A stretch of 35,583 bases of DNA from an uncultured Alphaproteobacteria bacterium (GCA_900551585.1 URWU01000001.1:1-35583), one strand, 5' to 3'; shown: positions 2,882 through 33,870, counted from the first letter of the stretch. Translations and numbers: made by a program. The notes: generated by a model not told the origin, from the letters alone.

Positions 2882-2924
2882 TTTACTTAGGACAGCAGGC
2901 TAACAACGTGTGTGGGAATCAAGA

Positions 2925-4922
2925 ATGATTAATACAAGCCTCAACAGCCCGATGACAATGAATCTGCTTAATTTACAATCTATTACCCAAGAGCAGGCTT
3001 CGGTGCAGCAGAAATTAGCAACCGGTTTGAAGGTCTCTTCTCCCCTGCATAATCCCAATGCATATTATACCGCCATCACCCTGCACAGCCAGGCTCAGGA
3101 GCTCAACAGCTTTATGGACGCGCTCGGCCAGTCGGTACAGGCGCTGAAAAATATTGATAATACCATCAACACCGGCATTAATTTTCTGGAGCAGGCTCTG
3201 GCAACGGCCCGCGTGGCTCTGGGCAACCTCATTAATAACGGCGGTTCGGCTCCGGTTCCGACACCTCCCGATAATGATATTACGCCGACACCGCCAACGC
3301 CCGGCAGCTCGGAAGTAACCCGCACCGATTTGGAAAACATCATGAAAGACAAAGGAATCAGCGGAAAGGTCGTGACCAATCAGGCAGAATTCATTGAGGC
3401 CGTCAACAATGCCGCAGCCGGAGACACTATTGCCATTCTCGGCAAAATCGATTTTTACAATGCCAGTTTTGATTTGAGCAACATAACAATCACCGGCGCC
3501 GACGGGCTTATCCGCAAACACGGGCTGGAGGATCAGTATTATGTCAAAGAAAGCGACCGCGCCGTTCTGAATTTCAGGATCGACGGCAGCGGCGACCATT
3601 CGGGCTTTGTGACCAAAAATAATGTGGCCGTTTCCGACCTGGCTCTTAATTACGAAGTTGAAACCAGCAGCAACGCCATCACCTATCAGATGATTACCAA
3701 CAGCGGTATTCTTGATTTGGAAAATGTCAGCATCTCCTTAAAAAGTGACAACAGGACCAGCGTTTATAATGATTTGATTGAAAATATCGACCGCGGCGCT
3801 ACAAATATTAAAGGCAAGGTCAATATTGATACCAATGATAACCGGACGTATATTTTCCATAACAGCTATTTCGGCCAGGTTATTCTTGATAAAGACGCAA
3901 CGCTTAATGTTGTCACCAAAGGCGATGCCGTCACAGTTTTTGACGGCGGCAAAATCGAGCTTTACGGCACCTTAAATGCCAATGCCGACGCTAATAATTT
4001 TACGCTTATGGATTATGGAAACAACATTATCGGCGGCCGGATAAATATTAATTCTCTTTTCAAATCCAGTTTTGGTTTAGGCGGCCGCAGCAACATCACC
4101 CTGTTGTCTACGGCGGATATCCGTATCAATACCGGAAGTTTTGCAGGCACGGCTTTTTCTTCAGGTTTTAAAATCAAATGGGAAAGCGGCGCTCAAATTA
4201 CATCCAATGAAACAACCAACTGGAAAGCCGGAAGCAGCGGCAATGCGGTTCCGGCAACTGATATCTTTTTCCAGGGCAGTCAGGATTTGAGCGCAATTTT
4301 AGGCTGGAACAAATCCGCCGTCAGAGTTTCGTTGACGGCACCCTCTTCCAAACCGCAAACTTCAGCCGAAAACGAGCTGCTTGATTATCTGAAGAAAGAA
4401 ACCGAAGAACTGACCAGTCAACAAAAAGCAATTTCTCTTGAAGCCGCAGCCAACCGTTATAACAGTATTTTAGATTACTACAATAACTTAATCGGAACCA
4501 ACAGCTATCTGAGTAAAAATCTGCTGCAAGACGATACAATGACGGTTAAATTCAGCACCGGAAAAGACAACAGGCTTGATATTAAGGGCCGCAATATCCA
4601 ATATGAGAAGCTCGGTCTCAATCAGGCCAACTGGGAAAAAGTTGCCGATATTGAAAAAAGCATAGATGAAGTGCAAAATGCTCTGGCCGACCTGCGCCGG
4701 CAAGGGCGCGAGTTCAGCAACTATAACAGCATTATTACCAGCCGTGATGATTTTATGGGAACTTTGTCAAATATCCTGACCGAGGGCGCCGACAAACTGA
4801 CTTTGGCCGATGTCAATGAAGAATCGGCAAATATGCTGGCTCTCAGCAGCCGCCAAATGCTGGCGACAAACGCGCTTTCTCTGGCGGCGCAGTCCAGCCG
4901 TTCCATTCTGTCCTTATTCTAA
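2925..4922 (+). CDS. Flagellin-family protein (665 aa) with ~370-aa central insertion (Pro/Thr linker plus putative parallel beta-helix domain)
   Basis: The track ORF 2910..4922 starts at GTG. The in-frame ATG at 2925 gives MINTSLNS..., a flagellin-like N-terminus. N-terminal QKLATGLKVSSPLHNPNAYYTAITLHSQAQELNS and C-terminal ILTEGADKLTLADVNEESANMLALSSRQMLATNALSLAAQSSRSILSLF align with the three flagellins at 30.4-35.5 kb. The central region has no counterpart in those genes. Confidence 0.85.
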   Translation: MINTSLNSPMTMNLLNLQSITQEQASVQQKLATGLKVSSPLHNPNAYYTAITLHSQAQELNSFMDALGQSVQALKNIDNTINTGINFLEQALATARVALGNLINNGGSAPVPTPPDNDITPTPPTPGSSEVTRTDLENIMKDKGISGKVVTNQAEFIEAVNNAAAGDTIAILGKIDFYNASFDLSNITITGADGLIRKHGLEDQYYVKESDRAVLNFRIDGSGDHSGFVTKNNVAVSDLALNYEVETSSNAITYQMITNSGILDLENVSISLKSDNRTSVYNDLIENIDRGATNIKGKVNIDTNDNRTYIFHNSYFGQVILDKDATLNVVTKGDAVTVFDGGKIELYGTLNANADANNFTLMDYGNNIIGGRININSLFKSSFGLGGRSNITLLSTADIRINTGSFAGTAFSSGFKIKWESGAQITSNETTNWKAGSSGNAVPATDIFFQGSQDLSAILGWNKSAVRVSLTAPSSKPQTSAENELLDYLKKETEELTSQQKAISLEAAANRYNSILDYYNNLIGTNSYLSKNLLQDDTMTVKFSTGKDNRLDIKGRNIQYEKLGLNQANWEKVADIEKSIDEVQNALADLRRQGREFSNYNSIITSRDDFMGTLSNILTEGADKLTLADVNEESANMLALSSRQMLATNALSLAAQSSRSILSLF

Positions 4923-9611: not shown

Positions 9612-10316
9612 TTACTTTTTGGCAAAAATCTTATTGAGCATTTTTTCCAGCGTTTTTGACTCGGCCTTGCCGTCATAGACAATTTCGCCCTGATCCAGAA
9701 TATATGCCTTATCCGTCAACGGCAGCAAGGTTTTCAGATTATGTTCGACAATGACAAAACCGGTTCCCAGAGTTTGGTTCAGCTCTTTGATTTTATAAAA
9801 AGTATCATTAATCAGCTTTGGCGATAACCCGATTGACGGTTCGTCAAGCAGCACCAGTTTCGGGCGGTTGATAAAGCCTCTTGCCAAAGCCACCATTTGC
9901 TGCTGGCCGCCTGACAAGTTGCCGGCCAGATGATCGAGGCGATTTTTCAAGTCAGGAAAAATCTTTAAAACTTCGGCCAGCCTTACCGGAAATTCTTTAC
10001 GTTTTTTCCAGAAATGTGTTGCCAGTTCAATATTCTCCAGCACGGTCATATTACGGAATACACGTTTGCCCTGAGGAATCATAAAAATGCCCTCCTCAAC
10101 CAGTTTCTGCGGGCTGGGTTTAAGGCTTCGGCCGTCAAGCTCCGCATGGCCTTTCACCAGAGGCAGCAAACCGTACATTGCTTTCAGCAGTGTTGATTTT
10201 CCGGCGCCGTTCGGCCCCATAATAACCGTAATTAATGACGGGTCGATGGTGACCGAAACATCATTTAAAACCATGCGCTTGTCATATCCGGCCGATATAT
10301 TTTTCAATTCCAACAT
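9612..10316 (-). CDS. livF: branched-chain amino acid ABC transporter ATP-binding protein (LivF type)
   Basis: Walker A GPNGAGKST, signature LSGGQQQ, Walker B LVLLDEP, and the typical 234-aa LivF length. Last gene of the operon. Confidence 0.9.
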   Translation of the reverse strand: MLELKNISAGYDKRMVLNDVSVTIDPSLITVIMGPNGAGKSTLLKAMYGLLPLVKGHAELDGRSLKPSPQKLVEEGIFMIPQGKRVFRNMTVLENIELATHFWKKRKEFPVRLAEVLKIFPDLKNRLDHLAGNLSGGQQQMVALARGFINRPKLVLLDEPSIGLSPKLINDTFYKIKELNQTLGTGFVIVEHNLKTLLPLTDKAYILDQGEIVYDGKAESKTLEKMLNKIFAKK

Positions 10317-10319
10317 TGG

Positions 10320-11057
10320 CTACTTTCCTAAATAGGCTTCCTGAACTTTTTTATTTTCCAAAACTTCCTGCGGGGTTCCCTGAGCCAGCAATTTGCCATA
10401 ATCCAACACGATGGTATAATCGCACAATTTTTCAATCAGCCCCATATTATGTTCGATAATCACCAAAGTCTTACCCTGTTTTTTTAAGTCTTCCATAATC
10501 GCGCAGACTTGTTCAACAATCTCAGGAAACAAACCGGTAAAAGGTTCGTCAAAAAAGAAAATATCTGCGTCCTGCATCAATACGCGGCCGATTTCCAGCA
10601 ATTTACGCAAACCATAAGATAAATCTTCGGCATTTTTTTGGCGATGTTCCTCTAAACGGACAATTTTCAAAACCTCGTCCAGGCGTTTTTTATATTTCTT
10701 ATTGCCCAAGTCAAACAAAGCGCGCCACTCGTTTGTTTCAGCGACCGGCAGCAATAAATTATCTTCAACGGAAAGCTGCTCAATTAAACGTCCGTCTTGA
10801 AAAGTGCGGGCAATTTTGAGGCCGCGCAGTCTGGTCGGTTTGATTTTGTAAAAATGCTGCTCACCGATATAAATATCACCGTCATCAGGCCGAAGCAATC
10901 CGGTCAGCAAATTCATCAACGTCGTTTTGCCCGAGCCGTTCGGACCAATCAGCCCCGTGGCCAGCCCTGCCGGAATATTGATGCTCAGATTATCTACGGC
11001 ACTCACACCCATAAACCGCTTGGATAATTTTTTGGTTTTAATCGCATATTTCATCAC
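10320..11057 (-). CDS. livG: branched-chain amino acid ABC transporter ATP-binding protein (LivG type)
   Basis: Walker A GPNGSGKTT, signature-like LSYGLRK, Walker B IFFFDEP. The ATGA start/stop overlap with the upstream permease gene indicates translational coupling. Confidence 0.9.
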   Translation of the reverse strand: MMKYAIKTKKLSKRFMGVSAVDNLSINIPAGLATGLIGPNGSGKTTLMNLLTGLLRPDDGDIYIGEQHFYKIKPTRLRGLKIARTFQDGRLIEQLSVEDNLLLPVAETNEWRALFDLGNKKYKKRLDEVLKIVRLEEHRQKNAEDLSYGLRKLLEIGRVLMQDADIFFFDEPFTGLFPEIVEQVCAIMEDLKKQGKTLVIIEHNMGLIEKLCDYTIVLDYGKLLAQGTPQEVLENKKVQEAYLGK

Positions 11058-11920
11058 ATCTTATACTTTCCTAAGAGACCCTGCGGGCGGAGAACCATCA
11101 TTGCCACCAAAGTTGCACCGTAAATAATCTGCTGCAGCTGCGCGGCTGTTTCATAAGGCAGCCCGATGAAGCGCAGAATTTCCGGCAGCGAAATCAGAAT
11201 CAGCGCTCCGACAATGCTGCCGATATCTGATGACAAGCCGCCGACAATGATAATCGTAAACAGGAAAATTCCTTCCTTTAACTGAAACGTGCTCGGGTCA
11301 ATAAAGGAAATGTAACAGGCAAACATCGCTCCGGCAATTCCTGAAATCATTGCCGACCCGGTAAAGATTATGCTTTTATAATGTTTGGTATTATACCCCA
11401 TAACGCGGGTCAGCTGTTCATCTTCACGCACAGCTTTGAGACAGCGGCCGAAGGCTGATTTGTCAATCATATGATACAGCGCATAAGCAGCTGCCAAAAT
11501 GACAGTGCATAATCCGAGATAAGCTAAGTTTGATGACAAGCGGACGCCAAAAACTTCCGGCTTTTCAATGCCGAAAATACCTAACGGCCCGTTGGTAACC
11601 GATTTCCAATTCAGCAGAACCGAAAAAACAATAATCGACAAGCCGGCGGAGACAATCGTATAATAATCTCCCTGAAACCGCGACAGAATGCGGCCGACAA
11701 CAAAAGCAATTACGCCGTTAATCAAAAGCCCGAGAAAGACAGACGAGAAAAATCCCATTCCCAATGAACTCATGCCGATTGCGGTTGCATAAGCACCGAT
11801 GCCGTAAAAAGCAGCCTGAGCCAGAGACAGCAGCCCGGACATGCCGACGACCATATTCAAGGACAGAGCCAACACACCGTAAATGGCAAAGAGGATGAGC
11901 AGGTTGATGATATATTCCAT
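11054..11920 (-). CDS. livM: branched-chain amino acid ABC transporter permease (LivM type)
   Basis: 288-aa polytopic membrane protein with the LivH/LivM-family pattern (multiple G/A/I/L-rich TM helices, ...REDEQLTRVMGYNT...). Confidence 0.88.
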   Translation of the reverse strand: MEYIINLLILFAIYGVLALSLNMVVGMSGLLSLAQAAFYGIGAYATAIGMSSLGMGFFSSVFLGLLINGVIAFVVGRILSRFQGDYYTIVSAGLSIIVFSVLLNWKSVTNGPLGIFGIEKPEVFGVRLSSNLAYLGLCTVILAAAYALYHMIDKSAFGRCLKAVREDEQLTRVMGYNTKHYKSIIFTGSAMISGIAGAMFACYISFIDPSTFQLKEGIFLFTIIIVGGLSSDIGSIVGALILISLPEILRFIGLPYETAAQLQQIIYGATLVAMMVLRPQGLLGKYKM

Positions 11921-16093: not shown

Positions 16094-18235
16094 CTATCTC
16101 GTATGTTTGGCATTGAGAATCAGACGGGTAATTTTATTATTATCCGGATGGGTTTGCAGCTTATATTCCTGATAACGGCTATAGGCTTGTGACCAGGCAA
16201 TTTGCTCTTCGCTCATTTTTTCCAGAGCATCACAATAGGCCAGCTGGTCGGCATGGTCGAGGGCGCATTTATCATAAAACACGGCAAGATTTTTTTGCAG
16301 CGGCGTTATGCCTTTTTCGGAAATCTGCCGCTCAAGCCCTTCCAGCAGCTGCTTTTGATAGCCCTTGGCCGCCGAAACGATAAAGTCGGTTGTTGATTGC
16401 GGATAGTCCATCTGGCGGACAGCCTCCTTAACCAGGATATTAAAATCATTTTGATTGAACTCTCTTTGCTGATAGAGCGGCATAATCACTTCCGAAATAC
16501 ATAAATCTTCAATTGCCGTCTGCAATCTTTCCGGTGCTTTTTCATCAAGGCCCGGAAAAATCTCAAGACCTTCCTGCAGGTAATTTTTCAAATTTTCCCG
16601 CGGTTTATTTAGGGAAGCAATATTGCGGCGGCTGAAATTATGTTCAAAATCTGTGAGCATTTTTTCCTTATAATTTAAATCAACATCAAAAATACGCTCG
16701 GAAAACATAACAAATTTTTCTTTTTCGACACCGGGTTTTTCACGACTCAGTTTTTGCAGATAAGCATCGGCCGTGATATTTTGTTCGGCAGCCAGTTCTT
16801 CTTCCGTCAAATCCAGATAAGAGACATAAGCCTGACAATTTTTGGCATAGGCGGTAAAAATTGCGGCCATATTTTTCCAATCGGCCTCTTTTGCTCTTGC
16901 CGGATTTCTCAACAGGTGCTCAACATATTCTATATCATATCCCGAAGAATCCAGAACAATTCCATGGCCGCCTTCACTCTCGAGAAGTTTGAATTGTTCG
17001 CGACTCAACAGGCCGACCAGAATGACATCTTTGGCACAATCCAAAATTTCTTCAGGCGTCATGCTTTTTTGCAGATTGATTGCTGCCAGCTCTTGCAGAC
17101 AACGGGCAGATTTTCGTGATGTCTGCTGCCGCCAGCGTTTATAGCGGGCACCAAAATAATTTCTGACATCTTCAGACTGAATCCGGCGGCTGTCATAGCC
17201 TTCAAAAATCCGCGCTTCTTTTTTGTGGCGTTTATAATCTGCAGAAGTTTCCTGCTCAAGCCGGCGATAATCATAATCAGACAACAATTTGTTCATATCA
17301 TCCTGAGTAAATTCCAGCGCTGATAAAGGCGATGAACTAAATTCGTCTGCCGCCATTTCATTTTTTTGCCAGCTCCTGATATCGGCGATTGTCAGGGCTT
17401 CATAATCCTCAACGGCCTCGGCTGTTTCATGCAGGGCATTTTCAATATTTTTAATGCGGTTATAGCCGGGCTGAGCCGCGGATAAAATCTTTCTGACCTC
17501 AGGCAGGCTGCCACGCAAAGCATTTTGAAAATCGCTGTTTGACGTTACGGGAATTTGCATACGGCGGCAATTATCAAGCATAGTCAGGTATAAACCGCCG
17601 GAAGAGGCCTGCAAGGGCTTATCAAAAGCTTCCAGACAGCCCCAATAAATGCCGAGGTTAATATTCTCCGTTGATAACCCGGGTTCGTTATTATTTTTCA
17701 TCCTGGCGGCAATTGTCACATCAAGCTGTGCTTCTTGAACCTTTTTCCATAAATCTTCCTGCCAGTCGATATTCATATCAATCAGCGCCGTATTGGCGGC
17801 ATAAAGCGTCCGCTGCAGCCAATAAGCGCTCTTGGCGTCAAAATAGTCATCATTTCTGCCGTTGACATAATTCTGGGTTTTAATTAAATCTGTTGCAAAT
17901 TGCGGAGATGAAAGATTGAAACTTAACGGAATATCGCGAAAATGCGGATTGCGGTTCAGTTCTTCCGAAAGCTTGGGAATAAGAGATTCTGCCATGCCGA
18001 TTTTGTTATGGTGTTTCCGCAAAGACAAAACCGGCAGTTTTGCGCCGTAAAAGGCATTCAGCTCACCGGTCAGATTTATCAGTGCCGGAGCCGTCTCGCC
18101 AAGGCGCTCTATATAAACATCAAGGTCATCGGCACGAAGAATTTTGCGGTTTTTACCGGCCAGCATTTTCTCGGCATAAAACACAAAAGTTTTTATGACG
18201 GATTTGTATTCTTTTTCATTTTGAAAATTGAACAT
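16094..18235 (-). CDS. hypothetical protein, 713 aa, no recognisable domain
   Basis: Long uninterrupted ORF with no signal peptide or TM segment. A possible own promoter TTGACA-N17-TTATAT lies in the 74-nt gap after flgE. I recognise no family motif. Confidence 0.75.
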   Translation of the reverse strand: MFNFQNEKEYKSVIKTFVFYAEKMLAGKNRKILRADDLDVYIERLGETAPALINLTGELNAFYGAKLPVLSLRKHHNKIGMAESLIPKLSEELNRNPHFRDIPLSFNLSSPQFATDLIKTQNYVNGRNDDYFDAKSAYWLQRTLYAANTALIDMNIDWQEDLWKKVQEAQLDVTIAARMKNNNEPGLSTENINLGIYWGCLEAFDKPLQASSGGLYLTMLDNCRRMQIPVTSNSDFQNALRGSLPEVRKILSAAQPGYNRIKNIENALHETAEAVEDYEALTIADIRSWQKNEMAADEFSSSPLSALEFTQDDMNKLLSDYDYRRLEQETSADYKRHKKEARIFEGYDSRRIQSEDVRNYFGARYKRWRQQTSRKSARCLQELAAINLQKSMTPEEILDCAKDVILVGLLSREQFKLLESEGGHGIVLDSSGYDIEYVEHLLRNPARAKEADWKNMAAIFTAYAKNCQAYVSYLDLTEEELAAEQNITADAYLQKLSREKPGVEKEKFVMFSERIFDVDLNYKEKMLTDFEHNFSRRNIASLNKPRENLKNYLQEGLEIFPGLDEKAPERLQTAIEDLCISEVIMPLYQQREFNQNDFNILVKEAVRQMDYPQSTTDFIVSAAKGYQKQLLEGLERQISEKGITPLQKNLAVFYDKCALDHADQLAYCDALEKMSEEQIAWSQAYSRYQEYKLQTHPDNNKITRLILNAKHTR

Positions 18236-18309: not shown

Positions 18310-19527
18310 CTAAGTCTTCAGATTAACAAGCAGCTGCAGCATTTCATTCGTAGCCGTAAAGGAGCTGGAGTTTAATCCATAAGCCCGCTGGACAACCACC
18401 ATTTTGGTGAACTCGGTTTCGACATTGGCGGTTGAACGCTCTAAGGCCTGGCTCTTGATAAAATCTTTATTTGAATCGAGATAATAAGAATCGCCGGTCA
18501 GACCGTTTGCCTCAAACAAAGTACCGGAAACCGAAGTCAGATTATCAGGAGCCGAAAAACCGGTCAAAGCCAGTTTGGCAATATTTACCGTCTGACCGTT
18601 GCTGTAAGAAGCATAGACAATTCCTTCTTCACCGATGGCGCTGAATTTGAAATCGCCGCTTTCTTTACCGTCTTGTTTGACATCGGTAATACCGCTGCTG
18701 CCGTCATACTGGGTCATATTCTCAATATTCATGGCAATTGTATTGCTGCTGCCGTCATCCCAGGCAACATCTACCGTAAAGTCTTTCGGTGACAACAGTT
18801 TGCCGTCCTGCGAGAAAACAGCCTCTATCGGCTCGGCCGTTGTAACGGTTCCGCCATTGACATCAAAAGTGACGTTCCAGGTATTAACCTTGCCCTCAAC
18901 TTTGGTAAAGAGCATATTCATTGTTTCACCGTTATTATTGGGGCCGTAAATCGTAATTCCGTAACTGCTGGTATCTGCCCCCGAAGCCGGAACGTTTGCC
19001 GTAATCGAGGCTTTGGTTGTCGGGGTTGACGGAATTTTTTCCGGATAATTAATCACAATATCCGACGGAGAACCGCCAAAGCCGCCGCCTTCCAAAGCAG
19101 GAAAACCCTGCACGCGCAAACCGTTATTATTGACCAGATACAAACTGCCGTTGGTTGACATTGTTTTAAAATCGCCGGCGCGGGTGTAATAAACATCGCC
19201 GGAATAGCGGTCTTTCAAAGTGAAAAAAGCGTTGCCGGTACCGTTAATAGCAACGTCATAATTATTATTCGACGCCGTTACCTGACCCTGATGCGTTACA
19301 TTGGTGCGGTCATAATAACCAACGCCGTGGATATCTACCCGCGAAGAAGATATGCCGTCCTGACTGCCTTTAACGACAGGATTGGCTCCCAACAAGGTAT
19401 AAAACATCGTCTCACTGCTTTTATAGCCGACAGTGTTGATGTTGGCAATGTTTGTACCAACGGTTTCCAATGCGTGCGATTGAGCAGTCATACCGGTTGT
19501 CGAAGGCATGAACATACTTAAAGCCAT
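18310..19527 (-). CDS. flgE: flagellar hook protein FlgE
   Basis: N-terminal rod/hook motif (TGMTAQSHALETVGTNIANINTVGYKSSE), C-terminal motif (ALERSTANVETEFTKMVVVQRAYGLNSSSFTATNEMLQLLVNL), and ~405 aa, a hook-protein size. ATG at 19527 has GGGAG upstream. The track start 19623 is an over-extension. Confidence 0.82.
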   Translation of the reverse strand: MALSMFMPSTTGMTAQSHALETVGTNIANINTVGYKSSETMFYTLLGANPVVKGSQDGISSSRVDIHGVGYYDRTNVTHQGQVTASNNNYDVAINGTGNAFFTLKDRYSGDVYYTRAGDFKTMSTNGSLYLVNNNGLRVQGFPALEGGGFGGSPSDIVINYPEKIPSTPTTKASITANVPASGADTSSYGITIYGPNNNGETMNMLFTKVEGKVNTWNVTFDVNGGTVTTAEPIEAVFSQDGKLLSPKDFTVDVAWDDGSSNTIAMNIENMTQYDGSSGITDVKQDGKESGDFKFSAIGEEGIVYASYSNGQTVNIAKLALTGFSAPDNLTSVSGTLFEANGLTGDSYYLDSNKDFIKSQALERSTANVETEFTKMVVVQRAYGLNSSSFTATNEMLQLLVNLKT

Positions 19528-19565
19528 GATAAAAATCTCCCTAAAATTTATCTTATGAGAATATA

Positions 19566-19581
19566 TGCAAAAATTGTGCCA
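19566..19581 (-). promoter_or_regulatory. sigma54 (RpoN) -24/-12 promoter upstream of flgE
   Basis: The minus strand reads TGGCACAATTTTTGCA, that is TGGCAC-N5-TTGCA, an exact match to the -24 GG / -12 GC consensus spacing. It ends about 39 nt upstream of the flgE ATG. Confidence 0.65.
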
Positions 19582-19795
19582 AAAGCTATTTCTTGTTTTG
19601 GTTGTTTTAATTAAATACCACACCGTTAATTTCAGGCGTTAACATTTATTTTTAAAAATCACTCAAAAATCGGCCATTTTGATAAAAAAACGGGGTATAT
19701 TTAAGCAAAATTGATAATTTTTGTTGTATTTTGCTGAAATAAGAGATATGAATCAGTCTGATTTTATTTATTTAACATTTAGTGAGAAAATTAAT

Positions 19796-22127: not shown

Positions 22128-22844
22128 ATGAAGACTACAAATTTTTCAGAAGAAGTGAGAGAATTAGTTGCAGGTTCAATGGTTATTGCCAACCGAATCA
22201 CAGTCGTTAACGTTGCAAGCTCTACCGAACTACGTGCCGTTGCTGCTTACATCCAAAAAGAATACCGGGAAAATATTCTCATTATTCAGGATAAGCAATA
22301 TGCCGCATTTTATTCCGGAGAGATTGAGGCAAATAATTTTTCCCATATCATCCTTGATGATGAAGATTGGGCAATGCCGACAGACTGCGGTTTTTGGGAA
22401 ATCCGTTTCAGACTCAAAAAGCCTTACCAAGAGTTTCTTGATCTTATCAAAGATAAACTTTTGTCTCAGGCCTTGATTTTAAGCGCTGTTCCGGATTTTA
22501 GGACTCTTGATGATGATATCAGCCTGCTTAACAGCGGTTTTGCCAATGACATCAGAGAGGGTTTTAATTTAGGTATGAAAGAAGCTCAGGAAGTCTTATA
22601 CAAACTTTTCTGCTTCTCCAGCATTCTTCAAAATTCTTTGCGAAAAGCCCAATATAATCCTAAAAATTTTAGGGATAAAATGGCTCTAACTTTGCTAAAA
22701 AAAGAGATTGAAGAATTTATCCAAAGCAAAAACTATCTGCTCTGTGTCGAAATGACAAATGCAGGCGTTAGCCGTGTTGTTTCCAGACATTGTCAGAATT
22801 ATGTTCAAAAGCTTTTAACCGCTTTGGAAGAAATTGTAAAATAA
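22128..22844 (+). CDS. hypothetical protein, 238 aa
   Basis: Clean ORF in an AT-rich block, followed by an AAGAGCTC/GAGCTCTT hairpin. No signal peptide and no motif I recognise. Confidence 0.6.
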   Translation: MKTTNFSEEVRELVAGSMVIANRITVVNVASSTELRAVAAYIQKEYRENILIIQDKQYAAFYSGEIEANNFSHIILDDEDWAMPTDCGFWEIRFRLKKPYQEFLDLIKDKLLSQALILSAVPDFRTLDDDISLLNSGFANDIREGFNLGMKEAQEVLYKLFCFSSILQNSLRKAQYNPKNFRDKMALTLLKKEIEEFIQSKNYLLCVEMTNAGVSRVVSRHCQNYVQKLLTALEEIVK

Positions 22845-22899: not shown

Positions 22900-23352
22900 A
22901 TGAAAAAGAAATTTTTAACACCCATTTTGGCAATCGTTGCCGGTATTCTTTTTTTCACCCTTTTCCAATGTTCCCTTTCCAGTGAAGAAGCTGAGGAGAA
23001 AGCACAAATTGAAAATGTTGAACGCCTGAGCAACTGTCCGACTTACTATGTTGACGGCGTCTCTGATCCATCTGATAAGGAAGAAGGTATCTTTTATGCT
23101 AATCTTTATCGCAAAAATGCGTCAGACGGAACTATCCCCGACAGCATACTTGTTAAGTTTTACGAACAACTGACACCGTCTATTCTCTATCTGAAAGCCG
23201 GTGACAGCATCAAAATAGATTTAGAAGTCGTAACTGATGAGTACCGTCTGGACGGAAGGTATCAGATTTTTAAAACTTATGAAGCATCATTATTTATTTT
23301 TGTTGATCAAATTCCTATCCTGACGGAAAAATACAAACAAAATAACAACTAA
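22900..23352 (+). CDS. hypothetical exported/lipoprotein-like protein, 150 aa
   Basis: N-terminal MKKKFLTPILAIVAGILFFTLFQC looks like a signal peptide with a cysteine at the end of the h-region (an atypical lipobox). A terminator hairpin lies downstream. Confidence 0.6.
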   Translation: MKKKFLTPILAIVAGILFFTLFQCSLSSEEAEEKAQIENVERLSNCPTYYVDGVSDPSDKEEGIFYANLYRKNASDGTIPDSILVKFYEQLTPSILYLKAGDSIKIDLEVVTDEYRLDGRYQIFKTYEASLFIFVDQIPILTEKYKQNNN

Positions 23353-27120: not shown

Positions 27121-27164
27121 AAAAACAAAATACCCTTAGATTTTTCTAAGGGTATTTTTGTTTG
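27121..27164. terminator. strong bidirectional hairpin terminator between the convergent DegT and Sel1 genes
   Basis: Perfect 14-bp stem AAAATACCCTTAGA / TCTAAGGGTATTTT with a TTTT loop, flanked by an A-rich and a T-rich run. Confidence 0.7.
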
Positions 27165-27194: not shown

Positions 27195-28343
27195 CTATTT
27201 TTTACTGCTGTTGCGTTTTTGGCGGGCAGCCAAGCCGTCATCAATATATTTTTTGATATTCGGACCGAAAGTTTGATGAATATAAACCGTCAATTCACTG
27301 GGCTTTTCAACATAAGCTTCCGCTTCGGTCTGAGCCTGCAGCAATTCTTCAATCTTCAAATTCTTTTCAAGAACATTACGGCGGTTGTCAGCGTCATCGG
27401 CACCGCGGACAGAAGCAACGTTAAACAGAATGTGCGCCTTATAAATGTTGCGGGGATATTTCTGACCGATTGCCAGAATATTACCGAGTTCCATCATGGC
27501 GTCAATATTGCCCTGAGCCATTGCTTTGTTCAATGCCTTGACCGCATTACCGTAGTTTTGCGGAGTTCCCCAGCCATTCATATACATCAGAGACAAAATG
27601 AACTGTGCGTCATCATAACCGGCATTGGCTGATTTTCTGATTAAATCAAAAGCATGGCGGAAATCTTTTTCAACAATATAGCCGCGGAAATAAGCATAAC
27701 CGAGCATAAAATTGGCGGTCGGATTATCACTCTCGGCGGCTTTTTCAAATAAATGTATCGCCTCTTCGGGATTTTGGACAATTCCCTGTCCCGAAAGATA
27801 AATAAAAGCCAGATTGACCATGGCTTCAACATTGCCGAGCTCGGCGGCTGCGGCAAACATTTTTGCGGCCATCAGCGGATTGCGCGGCGTGCCGATACCG
27901 CTGTAATATAAACTGCCGAGGTTGTTGATTGCGACATTGTCTTTGCGTTCTGCCGCCATTTTATAATAGTCAAAAGCTTTTTTGTGGTCGACAGAAACAC
28001 CGTCTTCACCATAGAGATACATATAGCCCAAAGTCAGCTGCGAATTGACGTCGCCCTCTGCGGCGGTTCGGGTCAGTTTTTGTAAAACCGTTTCGGTTGA
28101 GCCGGGCTCCACGGTTACTTCCGTTTTTTTCTTATCGCCCCAAAAATTGAGAAAAGAGAAAATGCCTTTATCTTCTTTTTTTGCAGCAACATCCGCTTTG
28201 TCTTCCGTTTCTTTTTTTTCTTCCTCTTTGGATGCCGGCGCCGCCAAAACTAAATCACCATCTAGTGACAAAACGGCTTCCTGAGCCTGAGCTAAAGATG
28301 TGGAAGCAAGCAGACTGAATAAAAACAAAGATAAGCGACGCAT
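27195..28343 (-). CDS. secreted Sel1-like repeat (SLR/TPR-like) protein
   Basis: ATG at 28343 gives MRRLSLFLFSLLASTSLAQAQE, a signal peptide with AQA cleavage. An acidic/Lys-rich linker follows, then about 7 repeats of the Sel1 pattern (A..L G.MY..G.GV..D...A..YY..AA). The GGAG SD overlaps the stop codon of the upstream gene. Confidence 0.85.
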   Translation of the reverse strand: MRRLSLFLFSLLASTSLAQAQEAVLSLDGDLVLAAPASKEEEKKETEDKADVAAKKEDKGIFSFLNFWGDKKKTEVTVEPGSTETVLQKLTRTAAEGDVNSQLTLGYMYLYGEDGVSVDHKKAFDYYKMAAERKDNVAINNLGSLYYSGIGTPRNPLMAAKMFAAAAELGNVEAMVNLAFIYLSGQGIVQNPEEAIHLFEKAAESDNPTANFMLGYAYFRGYIVEKDFRHAFDLIRKSANAGYDDAQFILSLMYMNGWGTPQNYGNAVKALNKAMAQGNIDAMMELGNILAIGQKYPRNIYKAHILFNVASVRGADDADNRRNVLEKNLKIEELLQAQTEAEAYVEKPSELTVYIHQTFGPNIKKYIDDGLAARQKRNSSKK

Positions 28344-28351
28344 TTTAACTC

Positions 28352-30184
28352 CTAACGAGTACAACCCTGAAACTTTCCCCAAGCTCTTTTGGCATTGTGC
28401 TTTTGAGCCTGACGTTGTTTATTATGATAATTTCTGCGGTTTTTATCAAGTGTTTTGTAAATATTTTTCTTTGACGGCCTATAACCGCCTTCCATCCGGC
28501 TCAAAACCTCTAATTCATCTCGGGTCGGAACATTGGTGTCAAGCGGCCGCTCATTCCAGGCATCTTGAGCAAAATGTTCTTTATTGGTCGAATGTTCCAG
28601 CGGCATGGCAAAGAAATGCGCTTCGCTGCCGGTAATGCGGCCATTATATTTTTCCATAATAAACGGGCTGTACCGCTCGGCGAAATCCTGAATCTGGTCA
28701 GAGGTGACCAACAGGCCGAGAGACTTTAACTCATCATCGGTCACATTGAATGCCTGACTCATATCAAAAGCCTTAAACGGGCGATACATAAAGTTTTTGC
28801 TAATGAAGTCAGCTACACCGCTGAAAATTTTTTCATTCTTGCGCGTTTGGCAGCTGTAAACTTCAGAATCAAACTTTTTGTCATTGGCCAGTTTGGCATC
28901 TTCAATACGGAAAGCCTTGTCCAAAACCTGCAGATTGTAGGCACGGATAGCTTCTTTGTTACGCTTTTGAATGGCCAGCTGCAATTTGAAAATATTCATT
29001 TTGGCAATCAGGCGATCGGCCGTTCCTTTGAAGCGTTTGAGATTTTCTTCCCAAAAGCGCAGCCCTTTTTTAGCGGTATGCTTAGATGTAATCAGCAAAA
29101 CATTATCATTGCGGCTTTCGGCATTTTCCTCGCCGGCATAAATCGCGTGCGTATCAATATCGCCCTCATAAAGCTTGGTGATTTTAATCTGGGTTTCAAC
29201 TTTGAAAGAATTGCCGTTGACCTTCATATTCAGATAAGCGCGTTTTTCACGGTAGTTTTTCTGATTATAAATTTTGCTGTCGCTGATATTTCCGTAAAAG
29301 CTGTCTTTAATCTCGGCAATGCTGACATTATACTGGCTGTCGTTTTTGAACATCTCAAGCGTTTCGACCGTATCCGTATAATATTTACGGGTAATCGTCA
29401 TACGGACCATATCTTTTAAGCGCTCATAAGGTTTCGGAAGCGCCGCAATTTCCTGCCGGACAGAAGCTTCTTCCGCAGCCAGGGCTTTGCGATACGCCCC
29501 GGTGTTTTCACCATATTTCAAGCGCAGGTCAGCTGTGTGTTTGAGGCGGATTTTAGCAGCATCATCACTATATTGTTTATAATATTTGCCGCCCTCTGAG
29601 ATAACTTTGCCGTTTTTATCCATTACCGGCATTTTGATTTTATCAATCGCACGGCGGATATTTTTCAATCCCGGCAAAATGACATAAACCGGATTATCGC
29701 GGAAATCATAAAAAGTCAGCCGCATATTGGTGAAAGGGGTAATATGTTTGGCGCGATATTCTTTATATTTTGACATATTATTATGGAAACCGCCAACCAT
29801 TTGGTTTTCTTCGACAATACCGGTATCCAAGTCTATCGCGTTAATCTCGTCCGGTGCCGGTTCTTCACCCAGCTCGGCAAGACGTTTTATCTTGTGCGGA
29901 CGATATTCTTTTAACAGCGTCGCGGTAATGTTTTTATATAATGTGCGGTAAGTTTCCATAGCATCGCCGTAGATTCCGCGCAGATAATCGGCGGCTTCCC
30001 GGTCAATCAATTTATTTTCTAAGGCTCTGTCAATATAGTTGAGGCTATATTCATTGAAGATATTCTGGATATTATCAATTTGTTCCGCTGTAAAATGCTC
30101 GATATCAGCAGCGGTGATTTTAATGTCTTCATCTTTGGCCAGAGCGGCTTTGACTCTGGATACTAATTCTTCGTATTCAGCCAT
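28352..30184 (-). CDS. hypothetical 610-aa protein with a possible RelA/SpoT-like nucleotidyltransferase core (tentative)
   Basis: Long clean ORF with no signal peptide or TM segment. Residues 213-349 carry RLKHTADLRLK ... DMVRMTIT ... NYREKRAYLNMKV ... FKVETQIKITKLYEGDIDTHAIY. This order and spacing is reminiscent of the RSH synthetase motifs (RxKxxxSxxxK ... GYRSxH ... ExQIRT-x10-H-xx-Y). The gene has its own promoter and is coupled to the Sel1 gene. Confidence 0.75.
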   Translation of the reverse strand: MAEYEELVSRVKAALAKDEDIKITAADIEHFTAEQIDNIQNIFNEYSLNYIDRALENKLIDREAADYLRGIYGDAMETYRTLYKNITATLLKEYRPHKIKRLAELGEEPAPDEINAIDLDTGIVEENQMVGGFHNNMSKYKEYRAKHITPFTNMRLTFYDFRDNPVYVILPGLKNIRRAIDKIKMPVMDKNGKVISEGGKYYKQYSDDAAKIRLKHTADLRLKYGENTGAYRKALAAEEASVRQEIAALPKPYERLKDMVRMTITRKYYTDTVETLEMFKNDSQYNVSIAEIKDSFYGNISDSKIYNQKNYREKRAYLNMKVNGNSFKVETQIKITKLYEGDIDTHAIYAGEENAESRNDNVLLITSKHTAKKGLRFWEENLKRFKGTADRLIAKMNIFKLQLAIQKRNKEAIRAYNLQVLDKAFRIEDAKLANDKKFDSEVYSCQTRKNEKIFSGVADFISKNFMYRPFKAFDMSQAFNVTDDELKSLGLLVTSDQIQDFAERYSPFIMEKYNGRITGSEAHFFAMPLEHSTNKEHFAQDAWNERPLDTNVPTRDELEVLSRMEGGYRPSKKNIYKTLDKNRRNYHNKQRQAQKHNAKRAWGKFQGCTR

Positions 30185-30221
30185 GGCTAACTCACTATTA
30201 TTTTGTCTATTCCAGCTAATT

Positions 30222-30249
30222 ATTATAGCTTAGATTCTTTTTTATGCAA
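30222..30249 (-). promoter_or_regulatory. sigma70-like promoter TTGCAT-N16-TATAAT for the 610-aa/Sel1 operon
   Basis: The minus strand reads TTGCAT (30249-30244), a 16-nt spacer, and TATAAT (30227-30222), about 38 nt upstream of the ATG at 30184. Confidence 0.5.
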
Positions 30250-30342: not shown

Positions 30343-30374
30343 AAAAAAACTCCCGGCTTGGCAGCAGCCGGGAG
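30343..30374 (-). terminator. rho-independent terminator after flagellin 1
   Basis: CTCCCGGCT / AGCCGGGAG stem. The A7 run on the plus strand is a T7 run after the hairpin on the minus strand. Confidence 0.78.
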
Positions 30375-30399
30375 TATAAGTATCGGAGCAGTAACTGTC

Positions 30400-31803: not shown

Positions 31804-31869
31804 TTTTTTCTCCAATACTTTGGAATATTATCTTGCTGTCGTTGTACTGACGCAGCAAGTCGTTGTACA

Positions 31870-31897
31870 AAATCCGACACCCTTTTGAGTGCCTTTA
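31870..31897 (-). promoter_or_regulatory. conserved upstream motif TAAAGGCA-N11-GTCGGATTT (candidate flagellin promoter, sigma28-like at best)
   Basis: Shared with the region upstream of flagellin 2 (AAAAGGCA-N10-GCCGGATTT), and partly with flagellin 3 (GCCGGACTT at the window edge). Resembles, but does not match, TAAA-N15-GCCGATAA. Confidence 0.3.
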
Positions 31898-32107
31898 ACT
31901 ATTTTTAATACCATATCAGTAAATAAATAGTTAACTGCAAAAATAAGTTTTTCAACGAGTCGCAAACTGTTTATCTGCCTGCTTGTCTGACTGAAATACT
32001 CTCTGCATAAAATTATTATAGACGCTAATATATTAAAATTTTGATAATGAGAAATATTGTTGAATGAAAAACGGCAAATTTTACCGGAACTGACTAATGA
32101 TAATTAA

Positions 32108-32140
32108 GCTGAGATGTTTCGACAAGCTCAACATGACAAT
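32108..32140. repeat. degenerate copy of the REP-like element
   Basis: GCTGAGATGTTTCGACAAGCTCAACATGACAAT, compared with GCTGAGATCCTTCGACTACGCTCAGGATGACAAA at 15969-16002. The ATCCT/AGGAT stem is replaced by ATGTT/AACAT. Confidence 0.6.
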
Positions 32141-32222
32141 GTTGCTATATTGTTTGACTGGTTTCTTCACGAAGCACTGCGTATCCGTTCAGAATAACGT
32201 GTGTGGCTGTATGGACTATAAG

Positions 32223-32256
32223 GCTGAGATCCTTCGGCTTCGCTCAGGATGACAAT
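32223..32256. repeat. copy of the REP-like element
   Basis: GCTGAGATCCTTCGGCTTCGCTCAGGATGACAAT, differing from the 16-kb copies only in the loop and the last base. Confidence 0.8.
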
Positions 32257-32320
32257 AAAATGCTCAGGATGACAATAAAGTACTCAAGGGGACAATAAAA
32301 ATATTCAGGGCGGCATACAT
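32241..32320. repeat. 20-bp tandem repeat (about 4 units, progressively degenerate) derived from the 3' half of the REP-like element
   Basis: Units CGCTCAGGATGACAATAAAA / TGCTCAGGATGACAATAAAG / TACTCAAGGGGACAATAAAA / ATATTCAGGGCGGCATACAT, in exact 20-nt register. Confidence 0.7.
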
Positions 32321-33765: not shown

Positions 33766-33838
33766 TTTCTTTCTCCAATACTTTGGAACACATTAACTTG
33801 TGAATGTTCTACTAACATTACAAGTTTTATATTAACAC

Positions 33839-33870
33839 AAATCCGGCACCTAATCAATGCCTTTTTTAAA
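33839..33870 (-). promoter_or_regulatory. conserved upstream motif AAAAGGCA-N10-GCCGGATTT (candidate flagellin promoter)
   Basis: Same motif pair as upstream of flagellin 1, at a similar distance (about 70-75 nt) from the ATG. Confidence 0.3.

Follow-up and report, generated by a model that had tools for sequence, protein, structure and literature searches.

The window analyzed here is a 35,583-nt stretch of DNA from an uncultured member of the Alphaproteobacteria (GCA_900551585.1, URWU01000001.1:1-35583). Between positions 27195 and 30249 it contains a two-gene operon that encodes a 610-aa protein followed by a 382-aa protein with Sel1-like repeats (SLR). The central part of the 610-aa protein, residues ~150-350, is very probably a genuine but very distant relative of the RelA/SpoT homologue (RSH) synthetases, the producers of the alarmones (p)ppGpp and (p)ppApp. 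On balance, we favor a reading in which the operon is a conserved two-protein module that combines a multidomain, divergent RSH enzyme, probably active, with an exported Sel1 solenoid. Both genes and the features within them lie on the minus strand, as do the promoter, the leader element, and the upstream terminator described below.

The RSH-like domain of the 610-aa protein

The gene for the 610-aa protein occupies positions 28352-30184, stop codon included, as defined by the open reading frame (ORF) call and by homologues. A first-pass annotation of this DNA could not place the whole protein in a known family, and the same result was obtained here, as the protein has no match in Pfam, NCBIfam, PADLOC, or PHROG. 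A single-sequence phmmer search against the PDB sequences returned just one meaningless match (E = 1.5). A word-indexed search found 37 relatives of the full-length type (47-100% identity, ~570-611 aa), none of them named and all derived from metagenomes. When the family profile was used in an exhaustive HMMER search over 1.84 billion representative proteins, only 46 clusters were recovered, and no Pfam domain was found in the ten distant family members that were scanned.

The relationship to RSH synthetases was detected at the profile level with a family profile (A2) built from 38 sequences with identities down to 17%. When this profile was searched against 177,635 PDB sequences, all five matches at E < 10 were small alarmone synthetases (SAS), namely YwaC (the best, E = 9.7e-4), SaSAS, 3l9d, and two RelP entries. 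A whole-protein profile gave no match to PDB sequences outside the RSH-like region. With hhalign, the family domain aligned with a small RSH profile over D258-Y349 with E values from 6e-5 to 1e-4; the small profile consisted of six sequences, taken from the PDB alignments and from the genuine SpoT of a related metagenome-assembled genome (MAG), L021.

Structural comparisons gave the same result. An AlphaFold2 model of the whole protein (predicted local distance difference test score, pLDDT, of 78.6) was compared with the PDB by Foldseek, and the top 33 matches were RSH synthetases, with probabilities up to 0.99 and a best E value of 9.5e-4. These top matches include SAS1, RelP, FaRel2, SpoT, and an exported SAS, and they are followed by the far weaker DNA polymerases mu and beta. 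A separate model of residues 140-365 (pLDDT 86.2; predicted template-modeling score, pTM, 0.71) had RSH synthetases as its top 43 matches (probabilities up to 1.00, E = 7e-4), and the next fold, that of DNA polymerase mu, appeared only at E > 0.5. In the viral structures of BFVD, proteins annotated as RelA/SpoT-type took ranks 1, 5, 6, 7, and 10, or five of the top ten. The RSH-like character that the first-pass annotation had proposed for the central region (residues ~150-350, 29135-29737) was therefore borne out by both profile and structure, with RSH synthetases alone as the top matches of the AlphaFold and Foldseek comparison.

The only residues that are invariant across the 38 sequences are K174, R178, K182, D258, R261, E330, H346, and R376. 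Among 29 close relatives, D258, N310, Y311, R312, E330, Q332, K334, and Y349 are invariant, and H346 is replaced by Ser in 3 of the 29. The four motif strings that the first-pass annotation had pointed out are present at the residues it gave, and the D258, NYR, ExQIK, and H..Y strings align with the DxxGxR, GYRSxH, EIQIRT, and HxxxY motifs of small alarmone synthetases, respectively. Within D258-M-V-R261 (29402-29413), in which both numbered residues are invariant, D258 aligns with the Asp of DIAGVR in YwaC, and from this alignment it would be the counterpart of the Mg-binding Asp in the DxxGxR strand of RSH enzymes. K293-D294 pairs with the KD of VKDYI in the alignment of A2 with the PDB sequences. 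In N310-Y-R-E-K-R315 (29240-29257), Y311-R312 is aligned with the GYRSLH of RSH synthetases, and the family as a whole has NYR(D/E)x(K/R) in place of the RSH motif GYxSxH. E330-T-Q-I-K334 (29183-29197) aligns with EIQIR(T), the strand of the catalytic Glu, and its Q332 is nearly invariant in the 38-sequence alignment. H346-A-I-Y349 (29138-29149) aligns with the H..Y helix that comes after the catalytic strand, and T-H346-x-x-Y349 is paired with EHKIY. The catalytic Asp and Glu positions of RSH enzymes are thus occupied by D258 and E330, which are invariant in the 38 sequences and aligned with the RSH residues.

The assignment of R213-L-K...K223 to the motif RxKxxxSxxxK, which the first-pass annotation had suggested, did not survive. 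This string is not conserved, and it lies within a variable helical hairpin insertion (residues ~200-250, 29435-29587; helices 200-224 and 229-247 of the model) that is a region of insertions and deletions. The hairpin is almost absent in the homologue P0047, it reaches ~200 aa in P0046 and P0066, and many homologues lack it or have it in greatly shortened form. Conservation of the residues named in the first-pass annotation was therefore divided, with E330, Q332, H346, and Y349 conserved and the R213-K223 region falling in the indel. As the likely counterpart of the ATP-phosphate-binding RxKxxxSxxxK helix we propose K174-x3-R178-x3-K182, on the grounds of topology and spacing. The corresponding segment, K174-N-I-R-R178-A-I-D-K182 (29639-29665), carries the three invariant residues, forms a helix (residues 176-183) after a strand (residues 165-170), and has the K, +4, +8 spacing of RxKxxxSxxxK, with Gly172 at the position of the first Arg.

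The RSH-like domain is flanked by regions specific to the family. The N-terminal domain (residues 1-105, 29870-30184) is all-helical in the AlphaFold2 model, with pLDDT values of 87-94; it is kept across the superfamily, and the fragments P0052, P0057, P0059, and P0064 match this part alone. From the alignment and the model, residues 366-545 (28550-29089) form a mostly helical C-terminal region with the conserved motifs NLQVLDKAFR.ED and NF.YRPFKA.D. The protein ends in a basic tail (28355-28549) that is modeled with low confidence (pLDDT ~45-63) and has Arg as its last residue. In the last 40 residues there are 13 Lys or Arg against 1 Asp or Glu. The tail is otherwise barely alignable, and Arg is the terminal residue of 28 among 38 close homologues and of 19 among 30 distant ones, some of which are <30% identical. 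The ribosome-binding site of the next gene might have dictated the terminal Arg, but this idea was rejected: its codon, CGT, is not part of the AGGAG, and the Arg is kept in homologues with no downstream Sel1 gene. An Arg-terminated tail of this kind could signal export, be autoinhibitory, or serve as a peptide that docks into a tetratricopeptide repeat-like groove of the Sel1 partner. The 610-aa sequence has no visible signal peptide and no transmembrane segment; a cytoplasmic location is assumed here.

The family is restricted to a human gut clade of uncultured Alphaproteobacteria. All 13 loci in species-representative genomes come from MAGs of uncultured Alphaproteobacteria or of a proteobacterium, of which one bears an identifier from a catalogue of the human gut (MGYG-HGUT, GUT_GENOME) and a second is labeled with a Hadza sample. 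The neighboring gene for FlbT, a protein typical of Alphaproteobacteria, is consistent with this origin.

Conserved pairing with an exported Sel1-repeat protein

The fetched loci of relatives were searched by tblastn with the proteins of the window. A Sel1 gene was found immediately downstream of the gene in every close relative of the 610-aa protein, and the intergenic gap is 1-60 nt in all relatives that have the pair. When the search started from gene 1, the Sel1 gene was next in 18 distinct lineages; when it started from the Sel1 protein, a family member was upstream in all 3 lineages that were looked up, which brings the distinct lineages with the pair to 21, counting searches from either gene. 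The distant clades L023, L024/L025, and L026 keep the pair, with RSH-like proteins that are 26-29% identical and Sel1 proteins that are 49-54% identical. No Sel1 gene was found downstream in the very divergent members L021, L022, and L027. Co-occurrence of the two genes thus extends to all close and most distant relatives. The RSH-like protein evolves much faster than the Sel1 protein, and also much faster than the flagellin genes (62-76% identity) and the gene for a DegT-family aminotransferase (79-89%) at these loci. Our literature searches found no published account of a pairing between an alarmone synthetase and a Sel1 protein, in agreement with the first-pass annotation, which knew of no such described architecture.

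The first-pass annotation had also placed the pair next to a flagellin array. This adjacency is frequent, with flagellin genes directly upstream in most lineages, but it is not obligatory: in L024 housekeeping genes intervene and the flagellin genes are at a distance of 8 kb, and no flagellin gene was found within the 6 kb of upstream sequence fetched for L028. The robust link of the 610-aa gene is the one to the Sel1 gene, not the one to flagellin. The loci seen in relatives are chromosomal with conserved synteny, the GC content of the operon is that of the window, the GC profile has no sign of recent transfer, and no integrase or transposase domain was found among the Pfam annotations of neighboring genes. 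The RSH-like locus is a core gene and not a mobile one.

A canonical SpoT/Rel of 715 aa, with HD, RelA_SpoT, TGS, and ACT domains, is encoded by the related MAG L021 (15060-17207, minus strand). Because the lineage has a normal long RSH protein, the 610-aa protein would be an extra enzyme rather than its stringent factor. At 10001-11377 (plus strand) of L021, ~4 kb from SpoT/Rel, there is also a gene for a divergent RSH-like family protein of 458 aa, which has no Sel1 gene after it and could be a paralogue.

The gene for the exported Sel1 protein (27195-28343) was identified by its match to Pfam Sel1 (E = 3.8e-44; 148 bits against a cut-off of 30.7), which consists of six matched stretches, the best of them at residues 173-207. 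These six stretches define a solenoid at approximately residues 96-335 (27339-28058). The first-pass annotation had described a protein with a signal peptide and about seven Sel1 repeats; both the signal peptide and the presence of Sel1 repeats were confirmed, and the number of matched stretches is six. By inspection, the Sec-type signal peptide is MRRLSLFLFSLLASTSLAQA (28284-28343), with predicted cleavage after AQA, and the mature protein starts with QE. An A-x-A signal peptide followed by Q(D/E)AVLSL(T/S)GD was seen in 15 of the 16 orthologues checked; the translation of the sixteenth, L017, begins at an internal position of the gene and does not cover the N terminus. The orthologues have conserved motifs of their own at the N terminus (AVLSLTGD and DKGIFSF) and at the C terminus (QTFGxNxxxYID), and the protein has 468 homologues at E <= 1e-30.

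The coordinates of both ORFs and the sequence of their junction were reproduced. ORF calling reaches back to a TTG codon at 28382 for gene 2, and the ATG at 28343 carries an AGGAG Shine-Dalgarno sequence. The junction TAG-GAG-TTAAA-ATG (28341-28354), read directly as ACT CGT TAG GAG TTAAA ATG, places the stop codon of gene 1 within the AGGAG ribosome-binding site of gene 2, which is the TAG/GGAG overlap described in the first-pass annotation.

A σ70-like promoter, TTGCAT-N16-TATAAT (30222-30249), was also found as the first-pass annotation had read it, and its layout is kept in 8 lineages. TTGCAT (30249-30244) and TATAAT (30227-30222) are separated by a 16-nt spacer, and the promoter lies 37 nt upstream of the start codon of the 610-aa protein. 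It was not listed by a consensus scan because its -35 hexamer agrees with TTGACA at only 3 of 6 positions. The evidence for it comes from direct reading and from an alignment of the upstream regions of 8 orthologous lineages, including one with a protein just 28% identical. These eight regions have in common the order flagellin stop codon, GC-rich hairpin and T-run, TTGnAn, ~17 nt, TATAAT, AATAGACAAAA, and start codon; the -10 hexamer is near-invariant and the TTG of the -35 element is kept. The conserved AATAGACAAAA element (30201-30211) between the -10 hexamer and the start codon has one exact copy in the window, where a search for additional copies found none, and it could be an operator or an element of the 5' untranslated region or leader. 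Strong terminators on either side of the operon, another claim of the first-pass annotation, were confirmed. The intrinsic terminator of the upstream flagellin gene (30349-30375; a 10-bp stem with 7 GC pairs and a T-run) insulates the operon and has an equivalent hairpin and T-run in the 8 lineages. At the other end, a bidirectional terminator hairpin with a 14-bp stem (27127-27158) is common to the operon and to the convergent gene for the DegT-family aminotransferase.

No σ28- or σ54-type promoter was found 5' of the operon. At 31816-31915 and 33766-33870 (minus strand), the flagellin genes share a σ28-like motif, TAAA-N15-G(T/C)CGGATT, and a long leader with TTCCAAAGTATTGGAGAAA immediately before the ATG, which fits FlbT/FlaF-type translational control; the RSH-like operon has neither the σ28-like motif nor the TTCCAAAGTATTGGAGAAA leader. 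The flagellin intergenic region at 32090-32300 (minus strand) contains three direct copies of a ~19-nt TTTATTGTCATCCTGAGC-like sequence, as well as hairpin-forming GTCATCCTGAGCGAAGCCGAAGGATCTCAGC-type elements that look like small dispersed repeats.

Several other ORFs of the window also have little or no similarity to known families. A 713-aa ORF (16094-18235, minus strand) matches no Pfam family at E 0.01; it adjoins flgE (18310-19623), a hook gene, and could be an unrecognised flagellar protein. The product of a 670-aa ORF (2910-4922, plus strand) has only a weak C-terminal match to Flagellin_C (E = 0.004) and may be a hook-associated or flagellin-like axial protein. The ORFs at 22128-22844 (238 aa) and 22900-23352 (150 aa), both on the plus strand, likewise match no Pfam family; in L001, L002, L004, and L005, genes of 150-154 aa that are also without a Pfam match are found at a comparable location.

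Proposed function and alternative explanations

Based on these results, gene 1 would encode an RSH-like nucleotidyltransferase core set between N- and C-terminal helical domains peculiar to this family, plus an Arg-ended basic tail, with the lineage-variable helical hairpin inserted between the putative ATP-phosphate-binding helix and the putative Mg-binding strand. The strict conservation of D258, E330, Q332, H346, Y349, K174, R178, and K182, the presumed equivalents of the metal, catalytic, and nucleotide-contacting residues of RSH enzymes, makes an active Mg2+-dependent enzyme the most likely state of this domain, probably a pyrophosphokinase. By analogy, the core would transfer pyrophosphate from ATP to the 3'-OH of an acceptor. 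The replacement of GYxSxH by NYR(D/E)x(K/R) and the lack of a glycine loop, features unlike those of (p)ppGpp synthetases, suggest that this acceptor is perhaps not GDP or GTP. Gene 2 would be translationally linked to gene 1, and its predicted product, a Sec-exported Sel1 solenoid, evolves much more slowly. The enzyme may also be functionally coupled to the Sel1 protein or to the flagellum.

The kinship of the domain with RSH synthetases has to be set against several results that weigh against it. The hhalign probability is just 57-66%. The Foldseek matches place the domain in the RSH synthetase fold, with its mixed β-sheet nucleotidyltransferase core, at template-modeling (TM) scores against RSH synthetases of just 0.34-0.43, all below 0.5; we attribute this poor global superposition to the long helical insertion, with the core being similar. 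In the reverse hmmsearch with the small RSH profile, family members came near the top and none was significant. The PF04607 profile, which the first-pass annotation had proposed as a check, gave no match to the 610-aa protein even at E 10 (gathering score 27 bits), and RelA_SpoT, although the commonest weak Pfam match in the family, was found in only 3 of 38 members with a best E value of 0.073. Global hhalign left the K174 helix unplaced on RxKxxxSxxxK, so that the equivalence of motif 1 is our inference, and the family lacks the first Arg of RxK. The glycine loop is also non-canonical, as had been noted earlier: the family has D-(I/V)-x-R-x-(T/S), with no DxxGxR glycine in its members and with the Arg two positions off. 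Borderline statistics of this kind (E ~1e-3, TM < 0.5, hhalign probability ~60%), together with the missing Pfam match and the insignificant reverse search, are what would be expected if the resemblance were due to chance or to a generic likeness between nucleotidyltransferase folds that have no relation to RelA/SpoT. We consider this quite unlikely, since four independent searches (of PDB sequences, of PDB structures twice, and of viral structures) rank RSH proteins on top, the order of secondary-structure elements agrees with the order known for RSH enzymes, and the positions that align are precisely those that never vary within the family. Because invariance across the 38 sequences is confined to the eight residues listed above, the resemblance goes beyond chance, and we hold with good confidence that residues ~150-350 are a genuine but very distant RSH synthetase relative. 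As PF04607 failed outright, the protein is to be regarded as a relative of the RSH family and not as a recognised member.

A true RSH fold might nevertheless serve other chemistry or none, for example the nucleotidylylation or phosphorylation of a protein such as flagellin, or a regulatory or scaffolding role, with nucleotide binding, in the assembly of the flagellum or envelope. The non-canonical glycine loop and RxK arginine, the NYR(D/E)x(K/R) motif, the large family-specific extra domains, and the position of the gene among flagellar genes, close to a DegT aminotransferase with a possible part in glycan synthesis, would all fit such a role; the strictly conserved Mg-binding Asp/Glu pair and the ExQ strand argue for RSH-type catalysis, and some lineages lose the flagellin adjacency yet keep the Sel1 link. 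We know of no protein-modifying RSH enzyme, and we regard this explanation as possible but not probable. A less probable alternative is that the 610-aa protein is an exported RSH-type effector, comparable to the exported alarmone synthetases and delivered by the flagellar type III apparatus whose genes surround it or by a type IV system that reads the basic Arg-ended tail. The enzyme would then work extracellularly or within a target or host cell, with the periplasmic Sel1 protein as its helper, tether, or protector. Positively charged C-terminal signals of VirB/D4 substrates resemble such a basic tail with its conserved terminal Arg. The fast divergence of the protein at 26-29% identity where Sel1 keeps 49-54%, the export of the Sel1 partner itself, and the usual position of the gene directly after flagellin genes also fit, and RSH synthetase domains occur on many secretion modules, with secreted RSH effectors well documented (PMC12691689, PMC3482391). 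Against export stand the lack of a signal peptide or of a secretion domain recognised by Pfam or NCBIfam, an N terminus that is a confidently folded helix and not a disordered type III signal, a promoter that is σ70-like and unlike the σ28-like flagellin promoter, and the lack of a cytoplasmic immunity gene; no secretion system was linked to the protein in this analysis. The least probable of the explanations, which we think can nearly be dismissed, is that of a toxSAS-type (toxic SAS) toxin-antitoxin or anti-phage module with the RSH-like protein as the toxin and its neighbor as the antidote. The FaRel2 toxin is among the structural matches, the operon is a tight one of two genes with overlapping signals, and the large protein diverges quickly. 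However, the partner bears a conserved Sec signal peptide, and an exported Sel1 protein cannot neutralise a cytoplasmic toxin; the 610-aa protein is far larger than known toxSAS proteins and has no toxin-antitoxin or defense family match in PADLOC; and throughout the clade the locus keeps its place and its synteny instead of occurring patchily, with window-like GC content and no integrase or transposase among the Pfam annotations of its neighbors.

Our preferred explanation, that of a conserved module of a divergent RSH enzyme and an exported Sel1 solenoid, itself faces the difficulty that a direct interaction between the two proteins is left unexplained when the Sel1 protein is exported and the enzyme has neither a signal peptide nor a transmembrane segment. 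More tentatively, the family may be a deep, unrecognised RSH branch whose product is something other than (p)ppGpp, such as a new nucleotide messenger or a pyrophosphorylated macromolecule, with an obligate exported Sel1 partner. In that event, either the status of the envelope or flagellum would be tied to nucleotide signaling, or the Arg-ended basic tail would direct export of the enzyme, which would then work extracellularly in the gut.

Relation to known RSH and Sel1 proteins

The best structural and sequence matches of the 610-aa protein are the small alarmone synthetases (RelQ/SAS1 YjbM and RelP/SAS2 YwaC; 5ded, 6ewz, and 6fgk), which share with it the strand-helix order, the Mg-binding Asp, and the ExQx(R/K) strand followed by the H..Y helix. 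They are ~200-aa single-domain tetramers that are caught by PF04607, whereas the 610-aa protein fails PF04607, lacks the glycine of the loop and the RxK arginine, has NYR(D/E)x(K/R) where SAS have GYxSxH, and belongs to a family that adds a helical insertion of 50-200 aa and N- and C-terminal domains. The toxSAS proteins (FaRel2, 8pu4 and 8pu1; CapRel) likewise use the RSH fold outside the stringent response, and FaRel2 is a structural match, but they are small, come with an antitoxin that is either cytoplasmic or fused as a domain, and are patchy or mobile, in contrast to the exported partner and fixed core locus found here. Exported and secreted RSH proteins (SaEAS, 8vx3; Apk1/Tas1; XopAD; PMC12691689, PMC3482391) also place an RSH domain in larger lineage-specific architectures, and SaEAS is among the top structural and sequence matches. 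Such proteins are marked for export or delivery by a Sec signal peptide or by a recognised domain (LXG/WXG, PAAR/Rhs, MuF, XopAD repeats, or DUF4157), none of which was detected in the 610-aa protein. The long RSH proteins (Rel/SpoT/RelA) belong to the same catalytic superfamily; however, HD hydrolase, TGS, RIS, and ACT domains are all missing from the 610-aa protein, whose synthetase core can scarcely be identified from its sequence.

The Sel1 partner resembles periplasmic SLR proteins (MotX of Vibrio, ExoR of Sinorhizobium, and AlgK), which are likewise Sec-exported SLR solenoids. It has weak NCBIfam matches to MotX, ExoR, AlgK, and MerG, all far below the family cut-offs; for MotX (NF047621), it scores 50 bits against an equivalog cut-off of 330 bits. 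With scores so far below the cut-offs, the likeness to MotX, ExoR, and AlgK is of the kind common to Sel1 repeats in general.

RSH enzymes are central to bacterial stress signaling, and they have recently been recognised also as toxins, phage-defense sensors, and exported enzymes. Since the present family escapes the RelA_SpoT profile, RSH censuses have probably missed it. The superfamily is already known; what is new is the architecture and the conserved partner, that is, an RSH fold in a new setting with an exported Sel1 protein in a clade of uncultured human-gut Alphaproteobacteria. Should the enzyme make (p)ppGpp in the ordinary way, no more than a distant new subfamily would be left. Identification of both its product and its acceptor would give the first functional handle on a conserved gene pair beside flagellin genes, and it would extend what is known of RSH chemistry or biology.

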